Source: Escherichia coli (GTDB taxonomy: Bacteria; Pseudomonadota; Gammaproteobacteria; Enterobacterales; Enterobacteriaceae). From it: a stretch of 64,000 nucleotides of DNA. Under the pieces are notes generated by a model that saw only the letters and a program-made list of their open reading frames with translations, made no database searches and was not told where the DNA came from. Location of the stretch: the NCBI RefSeq assembly GCF_003018255.1, contig NZ_CP027440.1. The stretch is one strand, 5' to 3'. The position numbers and the translations under genes are program-made. Positions 974 through 42,806 of this stretch are shown here, one piece after another (the stretch's first letter is position 1; each line of letters opens with the position of its first letter).

Positions 974-983
974 AACCAGAGAC

Positions 984-1030
984 GCATCCGGCATTTGGCA
1001 CCGATTGCCGGATGCGGCGCATCCGGCAAT
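984..1030. repeat. REP-type extragenic palindrome (GCATCCGGCA ... TGCCGGATGC)
   Basis: Inverted GCCGGATGC cores in the convergent preA-mglC spacer, typical of E. coli REP elements. Confidence 0.55.
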
Positions 1031-20252: not shown

Positions 20253-20275
20253 AAATTATTTGCAATAGAGCGATT

Positions 20276-20311
20276 GCCGGATGTGACGCTTAATAAGCGC
20301 GTACATCCGGC
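20276..20311. repeat. REP-like palindrome (GCCGGATGT ... ACATCCGGC) immediately 3' of psuT
   Basis: 9-bp inverted arms between convergent yeiL and psuT. Confidence 0.55.
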
Positions 20312-20319
20312 AATGACAC

Positions 20320-28098: not shown

Positions 28099-29280
28099 AT
28101 GCATAACTCCCCCGCAGTCACCAGCGCGAAATCGTTTGACCTGACCTCGACGGCGTTTTTAATCGTTGCCTTTCTCACCGGTATTGCGGGCGCTCTGCAA
28201 ACCCCGACACTCAGTATTTTTCTTACCGATGAAGTACATGCCCGTCCGGCGATGGTGGGATTCTTCTTTACCGGCAGCGCTGTCATTGGGATTCTGGTGA
28301 GTCAGTTTCTCGCCGGGCGCTCTGATAAGCGCGGCGATCGCAAATCGCTGATTGTCTTTTGCTGCCTGTTAGGCGTGCTGGCCTGCACCCTTTTTGCCTG
28401 GAATCGCAACTACTTTGTTTTGCTATTCGTTGGCGTCTTTCTTAGCAGCTTTGGCTCGACCGCTAACCCGCAAATGTTTGCCCTTGCCCGTGAACATGCC
28501 GACAAAACCGGACGTGAGGCGGTGATGTTCAGCTCTTTTTTACGCGCTCAGGTTTCACTGGCATGGGTCATTGGCCCACCGCTGGCTTATGCCTTAGCGA
28601 TGGGTTTCAGCTTTACGGTAATGTATCTGAGCGCAGCGGTAGCGTTTATTGTTTGCGGCGTGACGGTGTGGCTGTTTTTACCGTCAATGCAAAAAGAACT
28701 TCCGCTGGCGACCGGCACGGTTGAAGCGCCGCGCCGTAACCGTCGCGATACGCTGCTGCTGTTTGTCATTTGTACATTGATGTGGGGCTCGAACAGCCTG
28801 TACATCATCAACATGCCGCTATTTATTATCAACGAACTGCATCTTCCCGAGAAACTGGCCGGTGTGATGATGGGGACCGCCGCCGGGCTGGAAATCCCGA
28901 CCATGTTGATTGCCGGATATTTCGCCAAACGTCTGGGTAAGCGTTTCTTAATGCGCGTTGCTGCCGTGGGTGGCGTCTGTTTTTACGCAGGAATGCTGAT
29001 GGCGCATTCACCTGTCATTCTGTTGGGCTTGCAGCTGCTAAATGCTATTTTTATTGGCATTCTGGGTGGCATCGGGATGCTCTATTTTCAGGATTTGATG
29101 CCCGGTCAGGCAGGTTCAGCCACCACGCTCTATACCAATACGTCGCGCGTGGGCTGGATCATCGCAGGATCAGTGGCGGGCATCGTCGCCGAGATCTGGA
29201 ATTATCACGCTGTGTTCTGGTTTGCGATGGTGATGATTATCGCCACTCTGTTTTGCTTACTGCGGATTAAAGATGTTTAA
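28099..29280 (+). CDS. setB: MFS sugar efflux transporter B
   Basis: 393 aa, 12-TM MFS protein, matches SetB. Confidence 0.9.
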
Positions 29281-29531
29281 GGCGCGGTCAGCATTTCCAG
29301 ATCGATAAGCCAGGTCATTGCCTGCTGACGCGAGTTACCGCACATTTCAGCGCTGGCTTGTAAGCCTGCACAGACTTTCGGCCGCAGTGGCGAGGTGAAA
29401 ATTTTACAGCGTTGCTGTTCATCAAGCTGAATGCAGGGCGTATTGGCGGGCTTGCCATCTGGCATACCGGGAATAGGGCTGGAAATCGAAGGGGCAGTGC
29501 AACACGCCCCGCAACCCGGACGGCATTCCAT
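29277..29531 (-). CDS. yeiW: Small cysteine-cluster protein (UPF0153/YkgJ-like)
   Basis: Start trimmed to the internal ATG giving 84 aa ([14 protein letters not shown]...). Its stop codon overlaps the setB stop on the opposite strand. Confidence 0.78.
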
Positions 29532-29685
29532 ACGTTGTTCTCTTAAGGTTAACCACCGGATTGATGAGCGCGCACAGTACCACCTTTTTTGCACCAGCAA
29601 AAGTGCGAATACCACTTGCCCGAAAGGCCCGTCGCGAGTACTTTGTCGCGATATTTTTGACATTTTCGACTACAGGAATTTTTCG

Positions 29686-30258
29686 ATGCCAAGAGCGAAC
29701 GAAATTAAAAAAGGTATGGTACTGAATTACAACGGCAAACTGCTGCTGGTTAAGGACATTGATATTCAGTCGCCCACTGCCCGCGGTGCCGCTACGCTGT
29801 ACAAAATGCGTTTTTCTGATGTCCGTACCGGGCTGAAAGTAGAAGAGCGTTTCAAAGGAGATGATATCGTTGACACCGTGACGCTGACCCGCCGTTACGT
29901 TGACTTCTCCTATGTCGATGGCAACGAATATGTCTTTATGGATAAAGAAGACTATACCCCGTATACCTTCACCAAAGATCAGATTGAAGAAGAGTTGCTG
30001 TTTATGCCAGAGGGCGGCATGCCGGACATGCAGGTGCTGACCTGGGACGGTCAACTGCTGGCGCTTGAGTTGCCGCAGACCGTTGATCTGGAAATCGTTG
30101 AAACCGCACCAGGCATCAAAGGGGCATCTGCCAGCGCCCGTAACAAACCGGCGACATTGAGCACTGGTCTGGTGATTCAGGTACCAGAATACTTAAGCCC
30201 GGGCGAAAAAATTCGTATCCATATCGAAGAACGCCGTTATATGGGGCGTGCTGACTAA
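29686..30258 (+). CDS. yeiP: Elongation factor P-like protein (EfpL)
   Basis: Start trimmed to [10 protein letters not shown] giving 190 aa. EF-P fold paralog. Confidence 0.9.
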
Positions 30259-39509: not shown

Positions 39510-40534
39510 TGTCGCGACTCAGCCCCGTCAATCAGGCCCGTTGGGCGCGTTTTCGTCATAACCGTCGCGGCTACTGGTCGTTATGGATTTTCCTCGTCTT
39601 GTTTGGTTTGAGTTTGTGTTCTGAACTTATCGCCAACGATAAACCGTTGCTGGTGCGTTATGACGGCAGTTGGTATTTCCCGTTGTTGAAAAACTACAGC
39701 GAAAGCGATTTTGGCGGCCCGCTGGCAAGTCAGGCTGATTATCAGGACCCGTGGCTGAAACAACGGCTGGAAAATAACGGCTGGGTACTGTGGGCACCGA
39801 TTCGCTTTGGTGCTACCAGTATCAACTTTGCTACCGATAAGCCCTTCCCTTCTCCACCCTCCCGGCAAAACTGGCTGGGAACGGATGCCAATGGCGGCGA
39901 TGTGCTGGCGCGCATTCTCTATGGCACGCGGATCTCGGTTCTGTTTGGCCTGATGCTGACTCTCTGTTCCAGCGTGATGGGCGTGCTGGCGGGGGCGCTA
40001 CAAGGCTATTACGGCGGTAAAGTCGATCTCTGGGGGCAACGCTTTATTGAAGTATGGTCAGGGATGCCGACGCTGTTTTTGATTATTTTACTTTCCAGCG
40101 TCGTACAGCCTAACTTCTGGTGGCTGCTGGCAATTACCGTCTTGTTTGGCTGGATGAGTCTGGTCGGCGTGGTGCGGGCGGAGTTTTTACGTACCCGTAA
40201 TTTCGACTACATCCGCGCGGCGCAGGCGCTTGGCGTCAGCGATCGCAGTATCATCCTGCGTCATATGTTGCCAAATGCCATGGTCGCTACCCTCACCTTT
40301 TTACCGTTTATTTTATGTAGTTCGATAACCACCCTGACCTCACTCGATTTCCTCGGCTTCGGTCTGCCGCTCGGTTCACCGTCACTCGGCGAACTGCTGT
40401 TACAAGGGAAAAATAACCTTCAGGCCCCGTGGCTTGGGATCACCGCCTTCTTGTCGGTGGCGATATTGTTGTCTTTGCTGATCTTTATTGGTGAAGCCGT
40501 CCGCGACGCATTTGATCCTAATAAGGCGGTGTAG
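39509..40534 (+). CDS. yejE: ABC transporter permease
   Basis: 341 aa. Start overlaps the yejB stop by 1 nt. Confidence 0.92.
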   Translation: MSRLSPVNQARWARFRHNRRGYWSLWIFLVLFGLSLCSELIANDKPLLVRYDGSWYFPLLKNYSESDFGGPLASQADYQDPWLKQRLENNGWVLWAPIRFGATSINFATDKPFPSPPSRQNWLGTDANGGDVLARILYGTRISVLFGLMLTLCSSVMGVLAGALQGYYGGKVDLWGQRFIEVWSGMPTLFLIILLSSVVQPNFWWLLAITVLFGWMSLVGVVRAEFLRTRNFDYIRAAQALGVSDRSIILRHMLPNAMVATLTFLPFILCSSITTLTSLDFLGFGLPLGSPSLGELLLQGKNNLQAPWLGITAFLSVAILLSLLIFIGEAVRDAFDPNKAV

Positions 40535-40535
40535 C

Positions 40536-42125
40536 ATGACGCAAACTCTGTTAGCGATTGAAAATTTGTCGGTGGGTTTTCGCCATCAGCAAACCGTACG
40601 CACAGTAGTCAATGATGTTTCACTTCAGATTGAGGCTGGCGAAACGCTGGCGCTGGTGGGTGAGTCAGGTTCAGGCAAAAGCGTTACCGCGCTGTCAATT
40701 TTACGCCTGCTCCCTTCCCCGCCGGTTGAATATCTCTCCGGCGATATTCGTTTTCATGGCGAATCGCTGCTTCATGCCAGCGATCAAACGTTGCGCGGTG
40801 TACGCGGTAATAAGATCGCCATGATTTTTCAGGAGCCGATGGTGTCGTTAAATCCATTACATACCCTGGAAAAACAGCTTTATGAAGTACTTTCACTCCA
40901 CCGCGGGATGCGTCGGGAAGCGGCTCGTGGCGAAATTCTTAACTGCCTTGATCGCGTCGGTATCCGCCAGGCGGCAAAACGGCTGACAGATTATCCGCAT
41001 CAGCTCTCCGGCGGCGAACGCCAGCGGGTGATGATTGCGATGGCGCTGTTAACGCGACCGGAATTATTAATTGCCGATGAACCAACCACCGCGCTGGACG
41101 TCTCTGTCCAGGCGCAGATTTTACAGCTGTTGCGCGAACTGCAAGGCGAGCTGAATATGGGTATGCTGTTTATTACTCATAACCTCAGCATTGTTAGAAA
41201 ACTGGCCCACCGCGTGGCGGTAATGCAAAACGGTCGCTGTGTCGAGCAAAATAACGCCGCTACGCTATTTGCCTCACCCACTCATCCTTACACACAAAAG
41301 CTACTCAACAGTGAACCGTCAGGCGACCCGGTCCCATTGCCAGAACCTGCCTCAACGTTGCTGGATGTTGAACAGCTTCAGGTTGCCTTCCCCATTCGCA
41401 AAGGGATTTTGAAGCGCATTGTGGATCATAATGTGGTGGTGAAAAACATCAGTTTTACGCTACGAGCGGGTGAAACACTGGGTTTAGTGGGCGAGTCTGG
41501 TTCCGGGAAAAGCACGACGGGACTGGCGCTGCTGCGACTGATTAACTCTCAGGGCAGCATCGTCTTTGACGGTAAGCCACTGCAAAATTTAAATCGCCGC
41601 CAGCTGTTACCTATTCGTCATCGCATTCAGGTGGTATTTCAGGATCCAAACTCCTCGCTCAACCCACGACTCAACGTTTTGCAGATTATTGAGGAAGGCT
41701 TACGGGTTCACCAGCCGACGCTTTCTGCCGCGCAACGCGAACAACAAGTGATAGCCGTGATGCATGAAGTGGGATTAGATCCTGAAACACGCCACCGTTA
41801 TCCGGCGGAGTTCTCTGGTGGTCAGCGGCAACGTATTGCGATTGCCAGGGCGTTAATTCTTAAGCCCTCGCTGATCATTCTTGATGAACCAACATCATCA
41901 CTCGACAAAACGGTGCAGGCGCAAATATTGACGCTATTGAAATCATTGCAACAAAAGCATCAACTGGCCTATTTGTTTATCAGCCACGATTTGCACGTTG
42001 TCCGCGCGTTATGTCATCAGGTTATCGTACTGCGACAAGGGGAAGTAGTGGAACAAGGACCGTGCGCGCGCGTGTTTGCCGCACCGCAGCAGGAGTATAC
42101 GCGTCAGCTACTGGCGTTGAGCTGA
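40536..42125 (+). CDS. yejF: ABC transporter ATP-binding protein (two ABC domains)
   Basis: Start trimmed to [11 protein letters not shown] giving 529 aa. Two Walker A motifs GESGSGKS. Confidence 0.9.
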
Positions 42126-42128
42126 CGC

Positions 42129-42473
42129 TTAAAAAGGATTGTAGTTTGAAAAGGGTTCGGCAATTGCCACACCAAAATTTTTCAATCGGCATGTTGCAGC
42201 AAATTCGTCCTGGCGATTTACAAACAGGCACGGCTCACCTTCACACTCCAGCACCGAACATGGAACTTCGATGTCGCTTAACGCCTGGCTTAGTTTGTAC
42301 ATCACCGACCATGCATTATCACCATCCGGGCTAAGCAATTTAAGCGCCACCAGGCTGTTGTCACCGCACGGTCCATTTTGCGGAATCGGTTCAACCTTCG
42401 AACCTGCGAAACCAGCAGACCAGCGATAGTTCTGCGGCAGTCGATGGACGATTGAGAGTTGTAATGAAGTCAC
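42129..42473 (-). CDS. yejG: Small protein of unknown function
   Basis: 114 aa, convergent with yejF with only 3 nt between the stop codons. Confidence 0.78.
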
Positions 42474-42773
42474 TTATTTTCCCCGGAAGTACATTTTACT
42501 TCACAATTTGTTTACATCAATTTTAACACATCATCAACAATCCGTCTTTATACAGATCGTAAAGATTGATGCCTCGCCTGCGTGGCCTCTATGGCTCTGA
42601 TTTAAATAATATCTGCGGGCGTGGTCACGTTTGCGGGGCTATATGTACCCGTTTCTGCGATCTAACTCAACCTTTTTAACTACAATGATGTGACTTTTTA
42701 CATAAATTGATTTTACATAAAATAAACATATATCGGGGGAATGATAGATTTGTGGTTGACATGCATCAACAAA

Positions 42774-42791
42774 GGAAGCCTTTTAGCTTCC
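42774..42791 (-). terminator. Hairpin GGAAGC-N6-GCTTCC just 3' of bcr
   Basis: 6-bp stem followed by a short U-tract on the minus strand. Confidence 0.35.
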
Positions 42792-42806
42792 TCGTTGTGC
42801 AATAGA

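Follow-up and report, generated by a model that had tools for sequence, protein, structure and literature searches.

Overlapping bidirectional terminators were reportedly described by Ju et al. in 2019, with head-on and trailing collisions said to release both RNA polymerases paused at a shared hairpin. Terminators of this collision type require a stem-loop, are unlike intrinsic terminators and act independently of Rho (Wang et al., bioRxiv 10.1101/2022.10.23.513370). Stable stem-loops without a U-tract protect Rho-terminated mRNAs of Escherichia coli, with rut sites following immediately behind (Dar and Sorek 2018, PMC6061677), and REP elements lying between convergent genes act as dual 3' UTR stabilisers/terminators (bioRxiv 10.64898/2026.03.23.713779). 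The excludon, a further arrangement of opposed genes, is defined by its consequence, mutually exclusive expression via transcriptional interference or RNase III (PMC12288877). The gene pair considered here, yejF-yejG, is listed among 165 convergent excludons of strain MG1655 (ExcludonFinder, PMC12288877, Table 1), in a catalogue that is silent on the conserved hairpin we describe at the junction of the two genes.

Within the window, a 64,000-nt stretch of an E. coli chromosome, yejF (40536-42125, plus strand; RefSeq start adopted, the longest open reading frame beginning at 40488) encodes the ATP-binding subunit of the YejABEF microcin C / oligopeptide ABC transporter and faces yejG (42129-42473, minus strand), which encodes a YejG family protein of 114 aa. 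Both gene names follow the RefSeq annotation of E. coli genomes that are identical or nearly so. A preceding sequence-only reading had described a 9-bp perfect inverted repeat straddling the yejF stop, with 3 nt between the two stop codons, and our re-examination confirmed each of these elements: the yejF TGA occupies 42123-42125 on the plus strand, the yejG TAA occupies 42129-42131 on the minus strand (TTA on the plus strand), the gap spans 42126-42128, and the repeat arms GCGTCAGCT (42101-42109) and AGCTGACGC (42120-42128) enclose a 10-nt loop, ACTGGCGTTG (42110-42119). The 5' arm falls within the yejF codons Thr-Arg-Gln-Leu and the loop within Leu-Leu-Ala-Leu, where synonymous sites vary freely among species, whilst the 3' arm combines the Ser codon and TGA stop of yejF with the spacer, CGC. 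The repeat can be extended to 12-nt arms (42098-42109 and 42120-42131) with one mismatch, in which case it includes the yejG stop. The MG1655 hairpin (2277865-2277892) is identical to that of the window.

The yejG transcript ends well inside its neighbour. Under each of the three growth conditions sampled by Adams et al. 2021 (PMC7815308, Supplementary file 1), Term-seq detected a minus-strand 3' end at position 2277685 of MG1655, with read counts of 212,916 and 168,450 in two of the entries. This end maps to window position 41921, inside yejF, 208 nt beyond the yejG stop and approximately 170-177 nt past the stem. The yejG 3' UTR (41921-42128, minus strand; end taken from the published Term-seq) is accordingly antisense to the last ~68 codons of yejF. 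Further downstream on the same strand, a Rho termination region at 41511 (MG1655 2277275; Rho score 3.76, significance 2e-10), also antisense to yejF, is sensitive to bicyclomycin (PMC7815308, Supplementary file 2), so that downstream termination of yejG is Rho-dependent. A C-rich, G-poor stretch that follows the hairpin directly in the yejG transcript (41992-42091, minus strand), in which the C/G ratio of 1.4-1.7 reflects a modest enrichment, is a candidate Rho loading region. On the plus strand, a GGAAGC-CTTTTA-GCTTCC hairpin in the bcr-yejG spacer (42774-42803) coincides with a Term-seq 3' end at 42803 (MG1655 2278567), possibly the end point of yejABEF read-through across the whole of yejG.

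The antisense overlap at the 3' ends that had been predicted from the sequence therefore holds, because the pair is catalogued as an excludon and the yejG transcript ends 208 nt within yejF. As the transcripts overlap, yejF-yejG is a convergent excludon, sharing with the described class convergent neighbours, a very short spacer and overlapping transcripts, with the assignment made by transcript overlap and not by mutually exclusive expression. The same reading had proposed that both transcripts must terminate either inside the opposing gene or at the shared hairpin; the first course is the one taken by yejG, and the second was not supported. Since the overlap has already been published, this part of the finding is largely ordinary. 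The new element, obtained by comparing sequences, is the conservation of both the hairpin and the 3-nt gap across the Enterobacteriaceae despite near-saturated synonymous sites.

Conservation of the junction was evident at several levels. The 3-nt gap was kept in 65 of the 78 loci in which yejF lies opposite yejG, and in an alignment of 66 sequences 90.5% of stem cells were paired, compared with 13-36% in slid controls. Covariation reached 0.142 against 0.087 in shuffles, none of 500 shuffles attaining the observed value. At pair 42101-42128, G-C occurred in 33 sequences, C-G in seven (the Klebsiella and Superficieibacter groups) and A-U in six (Kosakonia), with the spacer base changing to match; at pair 42104-42125, U-A was found in 44 sequences and C-G in six, the latter carrying a TGA to TAG change of the stop codon. 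Pairs were thus kept by double changes (G-C to C-G, G-C to A-U and T-A to C-G), and the alternative pair states fell in separate clades. These compensatory changes amount to only ~3-5 independent events, and with clades counted as units, pair 42101-42128 gave three Watson-Crick matches among six changed lineages (p ~0.17), which is not significant alone. The hairpin was weak or absent in Pluralibacter, Enterobacter sp. ENT03, Enterobacter sp. Cy-643, Kosakonia cowanii, the L065 MAG and L077. RNAalifold recovered only six of the nine pairs from the alignment, with a weak energy of -2.64, and the explicit pair count is the more informative measure. Within the species, 5383 of 5425 E. coli genomes share the 70-nt junction at 99% identity or more, which says little because there are few free sites. 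Overall, the junction would qualify as a structured RNA element under selection with moderate support, since the independent compensatory events are few.

Our preferred account, held tentatively and at slightly less than even probability, is that a selected RNA stem-loop, which does not end transcription, lies precisely at a convergent junction that is very tight and whose conservation is ancient. The alternative that survives best, unlikely as we consider it, is that the palindrome is a functionless accident of the YejF C-terminal peptide, preferred codons, a tight junction and passive inheritance, leaving the overlap as the sole real biology. Perfect 9-bp inverted repeats with loops of 3-20 nt are common enough to make this plausible: dinucleotide-shuffled versions of the 64-kb window contained 5.2 +/- 2.5 9-mer matches of this kind, the real window contained 39 at ~19 places, and the yejF/yejG repeat belongs to the minimal class, with a single 9-mer match. 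By chance, therefore, a perfect 9-bp repeat is not rare, whereas its exact position on the junction and its conservation are not expected. The stem is GC-rich, with six G-C among its 9 bp, and the 34-nt element folds at -16.2 kcal/mol on the plus strand (z = -3.2) and -16.6 kcal/mol on the minus strand (z = -4.3); within 61 nt of sequence, z is only -1.3 and -1.5 and the fold is unexceptional, as an accident would predict. The handful of independent compensatory events, the lineages in which the hairpin is weak and the lack of any 3' end or other experimental signal mapping to it in published tables likewise favour an accidental origin.

Codon usage within yejF provides a counterweight. Relative to E. 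coli, ~60% of fourfold-degenerate and ~40% of twofold-degenerate yejF sites differ, and synonymous sites are thus near saturation. Most stem positions are set by the conserved YejF C-terminus (TRQL...S), and the stem CAG and AGC codons are conserved no better than other CAG and AGC codons of the gene, in keeping with passive inheritance. By contrast, the G of the stem ACG codon, a non-preferred codon, is kept in 72% of species against 3-13% at other yejF ACG codons, and the T of the stem CGT codon in 73% against 40-49% elsewhere. When ACG does change at its third base, the change is matched by the third base of the spacer (42126-42128), which is non-coding, yet the C and G of this spacer are more than 90% conserved. 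Against a codon-resampling null (p <= 0.03), the hairpin was significant on the minus strand in 22 of 28 lineage representatives and on the plus strand in 17 of 28. A second stem-loop in the same gene (41927-41964, minus strand), whose end lies 6 nt short of the mapped 3' end of yejG and which is not conserved beyond E. coli, served as negative control and carried no such signal (p = 0.13-0.96 across the 28 lineages), ruling it out as a conserved element. These observations argue for constraint beyond that imposed by the peptide.

A shared bidirectional terminator, either a weak intrinsic one or an overlapping bidirectional terminator of the collision type to which the hairpin contributes the stem-loop, is a less probable explanation again, and one we regard as improbable. 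It was one of the two options named by the sequence-only reading, and it draws on the stability and symmetry of the stem-loop, on its placement exactly between convergent genes and on conservation that is significant on both strands in many lineages. Like a bidirectional intrinsic terminator, the stem is GC-rich, palindromic and usable on both strands, but it differs in its long, 10-nt loop and in having no flanking A-tract or U-tract: the plus-strand tail UUAAAAAG contains two U in eight and the minus-strand tail GUAUACUC three in eight. The hairpin was not called by a consensus terminator scan. Over MG1655 2277800-2277999, the published supplementary tables of Adams et al. 2021 (PMC7815308) list no curated Term-seq 3' end for any of the three conditions, the sheet examined of the published TRS table (PMC10687069) gives none between 2276757 and 2278519, and yejF/yejG are not mentioned in the SMRT-Cappable-seq supplements. 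The bcr hairpin 650 nt away (42774-42791) has a U-rich tail and nearby 3' ends on both strands, and the yejF/yejG hairpin has neither. As an intrinsic or bidirectional terminator the hairpin is ruled out by its sequence (U-tract and loop) together with published 3'-end maps, and we conclude that it is not a terminator; these maps, which place ends far from the hairpin, refute that role only and not the overlap.

The collision-type version of this explanation fits in part, as the class needs a stem-loop that need not resemble those of intrinsic terminators, and the yejF/yejG stem-loop is symmetric, lies between convergent genes and is not intrinsic-like. Furthermore, yejABEF is weakly expressed, so a plus-strand 3' end could fall under published thresholds. 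However, the stem has no reported pair of 3' ends; the minus strand reads through, with its strong 3' end beyond the hairpin in three conditions, and is terminated by Rho, in contrast to the Rho independence ascribed to collision-type terminators. The example worked through for such terminators, ynaJ-uspE, contains a genuine intergenic region, while the yejF/yejG stem lies almost wholly inside the coding sequence of one gene. A DNA-level palindrome, namely a dimeric-protein binding site or cruciform-prone sequence, would account for conserved, symmetric 9-bp half-sites 10 bp apart but is highly improbable, as substitutions in these half-sites are complementary (G-C to C-G to A-T) and keep to no fixed consensus, and the half-sites lie within a coding region far from any promoter, have no Rfam match and tolerate one-strand G-U wobble changes unequally between the strands, a pattern meaningful only for RNA.

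Several described elements were also compared with the junction and set aside. REP elements resemble it in that one palindrome is common to two convergent transcripts and could stabilise both, but the yejF/yejG hairpin is a single-copy element overlapping coding sequence and keeps the same position from genus to genus, unlike REP elements, whose locations differ among strains; REP-like palindromes of the window (983-1030 and 20275-20312) carry GCCGGATG, which the hairpin lacks. A known RNA family was rejected, as no Rfam model matched over the hairpin (41400-43000, E <= 5) and two weak matches elsewhere were irrelevant. A general rule of hairpins at tight junctions was likewise discarded, the window's other tight convergent junction, setB/yeiW (4-nt overlap), showing neither a clean inverted repeat nor a fold out of the ordinary. 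A precedent lies in the stem-loops of Dar and Sorek: the yejG hairpin is stable, has no U-tract, is followed by a C-rich stretch and lies upstream of Rho-dependent termination, differing in that the dominant K-12 yejG 3' end, at 41921, lies 6 nt after another, non-conserved stem-loop.

Returning to the reading of a selected RNA stem-loop, its strand preference points to yejG. Stem cells paired on one strand only numbered 32 on the minus strand and 17 on the plus strand, all nine pairs were intact in 37 of 62 sequences on the minus strand and 28 of 62 on the plus strand, and the minus strand gave the more stable fold in 42 sequences, the plus strand in seven, although available synonymous transitions could be partly behind this preference. 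The hairpin is most likely a structural stem-loop of the yejG mRNA made from the last yejF codons, as suggested by the comparative data. That it serves the yejG mRNA as a functional 3' element encoded by yejF, constraining the synonymous codons, stop choice and exact spacing of its neighbour, we put forward as a possibility falling just short of an even chance. On published data, both genes are transcribed beyond each other's stop codons, and the yejG message crosses the hairpin and runs at least 208 nt antisense to yejF before Rho-dependent termination and then 3' trimming. The stem, comprising the last eight yejF codons, the TGA stop and the 3-nt spacer, would, as we infer from its conservation, be kept mainly for the yejG-mRNA strand, where it starts at the first base past the UAA.

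The most likely of its putative post-transcriptional jobs is perhaps that of a barrier to 3'-to-5' exonucleases entering the yejG coding region; alternatively, it may act as a barrier against decay after cleavage of the sense/antisense duplex, and the mirror-image hairpin could serve the yejABEF mRNA likewise. If it is a barrier, the hairpin cannot be the principal one in K-12 under the sampled conditions, because no steady-state 3' end is reported at the base of the stem, and a ribosome terminating at either stop would cover or melt the stem, which counts against the barrier model.

The practical stakes are small, as the overlap has already been catalogued and yejG is without an established function. 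For annotation, the locus cautions that a conserved palindrome between convergent genes is not necessarily a terminator. Should the hairpin prove functional, it could easily be destroyed unknowingly, and yejF knock-outs or a codon-optimised yejF could alter yejG expression. Very tight convergent junctions would then represent more than compact packing, with the 3' RNA structure of one gene sitting in the coding sequence of its neighbour and tying together the evolution of both ends. Ultimately, if true, the reading of the hairpin as a yejG element would explain the frozen 3-nt gap and offer a clear-cut natural example of dual coding on opposite strands at a convergent junction.

The sequence-only reading had placed a 9-bp perfect inverted repeat across the yejF stop codon, with a gap of only 3 nt between the stops of the convergent yejF and yejG genes, and its coordinates for repeat, stops and gap proved exact when re-read from the window. 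The 5' arm (GCGTCAGCT, 42101-42109) lies in the yejF codons Thr-Arg-Gln-Leu and is separated by a 10-nt loop from the 3' arm (AGCTGACGC, 42120-42128), composed of the last yejF Ser codon, the stop and the spacer; the yejF stop (TGA) occupies 42123-42125 on the + strand and the yejG stop (TAA) 42129-42131 on the - strand. With one mismatch the arms can be extended to 12 nt, reaching into the yejG stop. The junction is identical in MG1655, and the 1.1-kb stretch around it has a chromosomal match, annotated as yejF and yejG, in 5425 of 5426 complete E. coli genomes. The longest yejF ORF begins at TTG 40488, against a RefSeq start at 40536, one base after the yejE stop, so the mechanical ORF over-extends 16 codons into yejE. 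Farther along the window, a truncated pertactin-like autotransporter pseudogene (~50449-51424; 28850-29825 of the comparison locus L083, from a 100%-identical strain) directly adjoins a tRNA-Pro gene and has the appearance of an insertion remnant at a tRNA site.

Taken alone, the junction repeat is not beyond chance, and it is cross-species comparison that gives it weight. In dinucleotide shuffles of the window, perfect 9-bp inverted repeats (loops of 3-20 nt) numbered 5.2 +/- 2.5, against 39 such hits at ~19 places in the real window, mostly REP elements and terminators, among which the junction repeat belongs to the minimal class. Two clusters of nested perfect inverted repeats with GCCGGATG and the look of REP elements, at 983-1030 and 20275-20312, make up much of this excess. 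The 34-nt element folds at -16.2 kcal/mol on the + strand (z = -3.2) and -16.6 kcal/mol on the - strand (z = -4.3), with z only -1.3 (+) and -1.5 (-) in a 61-nt context.

Scanning one genome per species for YejG returned 80 loci. yejF lay opposite yejG in 78, and in 65 of these the stops were exactly 3 nt apart, covering Escherichia, Salmonella, Citrobacter, Klebsiella, Kluyvera, Kosakonia, Enterobacter and Leclercia, among others; the remaining pairs showed overlaps or gaps of 0-23 nt. YejG homologues are not always tied to yejF, since Intestinirhabdus alba (L034) had no yejF-like ORF opposite yejG and Citrobacter koseri (L080) carried a divergent YejG-like gene (51% identity) at a different kind of locus. 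With 66 junctions aligned without gaps (A1), standard pairs filled 90.5% of stem cells, compared with 13-36% when the 3' partners were slid by 1-3 columns, and covariation was 0.142 versus 0.087 in shuffles, a value reached by none of 500 shuffles. Double changes were seen at two pairs: 42101-42128, joining the third bases of the Thr codon and the spacer (33 G-C, 7 C-G, 6 A-U, 3 wobble, 13 unpaired), and 42104-42125, joining the third bases of the Arg codon and the stop (44 U-A, 6 C-G, the latter where TGA has become TAG and CGT has become CGC). When pair states were placed on a neighbour-joining tree, G-C fell in the Escherichia/Salmonella/Citrobacter and Leclercia/Enterobacter clades, C-G in Klebsiella and Superficieibacter/UBA5654, and A-U in Kosakonia; Kluyvera has G opposite G, but bulged re-pairing and a gained inner pair bring its fold to -17.8 kcal/mol. 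These compensatory changes correspond to roughly 3-5 independent events, a suggestive rather than conclusive number.

Synonymous divergence is such that a hairpin free of selection should have decayed: over the last 200 yejF codons, ~60% of fourfold-degenerate and ~40% of twofold sites differ from E. coli in every non-Escherichia genus. The G of the stem ACG codon is retained in 72% of species, versus 3-13% at the three other ACG codons of yejF, and the T of the stem CGT codon in 73%, versus 40-49% elsewhere in the gene; retention at the stem CAG and AGC codons was unremarkable relative to the rest of yejF. A null model drew synonymous codons according to the yejF usage of the species concerned and randomized the stop codons and spacer; against it, of 28 lineage representatives, 22 had a hairpin at p <= 0.03 on the - strand and 17 on the + strand. 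The same null gave p = 0.13-0.96 in all 28 lineages for a control hairpin (41927-41964, - strand), so the test is not generically permissive. Moderate comparative evidence supports selection on the stem as an RNA structure, with the clearer signal on the yejG strand; that the hairpin is an accident of coding constraint is unlikely, though an alternative to be taken seriously.

Published data establish that the yejF and yejG transcripts overlap, and that Rho takes part in ending the yejG transcript within yejF. The curated Term-seq 3' ends of Adams et al. 2021 (PMC7815308, Supplementary file 1; LB OD 0.4, LB OD 2.0 and M63) include, in all three conditions, a - strand end antisense to yejF at MG1655 2277685 (MG1655 coordinate = window + 2,235,764; window 41921), with read counts of 212,916 and 168,450 in two of its entries. 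This end sits 208 nt beyond the yejG stop, ~177 nt beyond the hairpin and 6 nt after the stem-loop at 41927-41964, within yejF coding sequence; a 3' end shortly after a stem-loop is the signature of trimmed Rho-dependent transcripts (Dar and Sorek, PMC6061677), and a Rho termination region is reported at 2277275 (-) (window 41511; score 3.76, p = 2e-10; PMC7815308, Supplementary file 2). The RNA that directly follows the junction hairpin is C-rich and G-poor to a moderate degree (C/G 1.4-1.7). As the stem-loop at 41927-41964 is conserved no further than protein sequence gives, the yejG 3' end probably lies at a species-specific position. ExcludonFinder (PMC12288877, Table 1) counts yejF-yejG as one of 165 convergent excludons, pairs with overlapping transcripts, found in at least 50% of 58 MG1655 transcriptomes. 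Antisense overlap of the 3' ends, the main inference of the sequence-only reading, is thus borne out by this listing and by the yejG 3' end, and is not new, the excludon having been catalogued and the end mapped. A second very tight convergent pair in the window, setB (+) and yeiW (-), overlapping by 4 nt at 29278-29281, is also listed as an excludon (PMC12288877); its junction has no clean inverted repeat and an unremarkable fold (z = -1.0 and -0.6).

The other option in the sequence-only reading, termination at a shared hairpin, did not hold. No curated 3' end falls on the hairpin (MG1655 2277865-2277892), no 22778... or 22779... entry occurs in any PMC7815308 supplementary table, and the yejG transcript reads through, establishing that the junction hairpin is not a terminator. 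In one sheet of the TRS table of PMC10687069 (Supplementary Data 3) there is no entry at the junction: after 2276757 on the - strand, antisense to yejF, the next is 2278519 (-), the primary end of bcr. A bidirectional terminator of the collision type, or a weak one, is improbable, being disfavoured by read-through and Rho dependence, both from - strand data. On the + strand, the sole nearby curated 3' end (2278567, window 42803; read counts 1086 and 3147; PMC7815308) lies 678 nt beyond the yejF stop, beside the bcr terminator hairpin, and could be where yejABEF read-through stops after crossing the whole of yejG in antisense. That hairpin (GGAAGC-CTTTTA-GCTTCC, 42774-42791), directly behind the bcr stop, has the look of a true bidirectional terminator: UUUGUUGAU follows it on the - strand, and the published (-) terminus at 2278519 and the + strand end lie nearby. 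The AT-rich bcr-yejG intergenic region upstream of yejG (42474-42806, 333 nt) is where PMC4152368 mentions an Hfq-enriched '5' UTR-yejG' small RNA, and contains promoter-like - strand matches at 42769-42741 and 42520-42493 and no credible Rfam family match.

One-strand G-U wobble changes favour the - strand, with 32 cells pairing only on - and 17 only on +; all nine pairs are kept in 37 of 62 distinct sequences on - versus 28 on +, and the more stable fold is on - in 42 sequences and on + in 7. The + strand hairpin looks degraded, with the - strand still significant, in Kosakonia oryzendophytica, K. oryziphila, Superficieibacter sp., Enterobacter asburiae and a MAG labelled Enterobacter. Read on the - strand, the stem begins at the base directly after the yejG UAA. 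We regard the strand preference as a lean and no proof, as available synonymous transitions may partly account for the bias. A DNA-level site is very improbable, with complementary substitutions and strand-asymmetric wobble changes both speaking against it.

Most plausibly, judging from sequence comparison, the hairpin acts after transcription, as a barrier against decay by 3'-to-5' exonucleases that would guard the yejG reading frame; the mirror-image hairpin could guard yejF likewise. The main weakness of the barrier interpretation is that the reported 3' ends include none at the hairpin base. Closest in working are the protective stem-loops of Rho-terminated mRNAs, which share the lack of a U-tract but, unlike the junction hairpin, carry the dominant 3' end, whilst collision-type bidirectional terminators are alike in position only. 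We found no description of the junction hairpin itself in the literature open to search. The modest twist is that the 3' structure of yejG is encoded in the last codons of its neighbour yejF and appears to hold the 3-nt spacing frozen.
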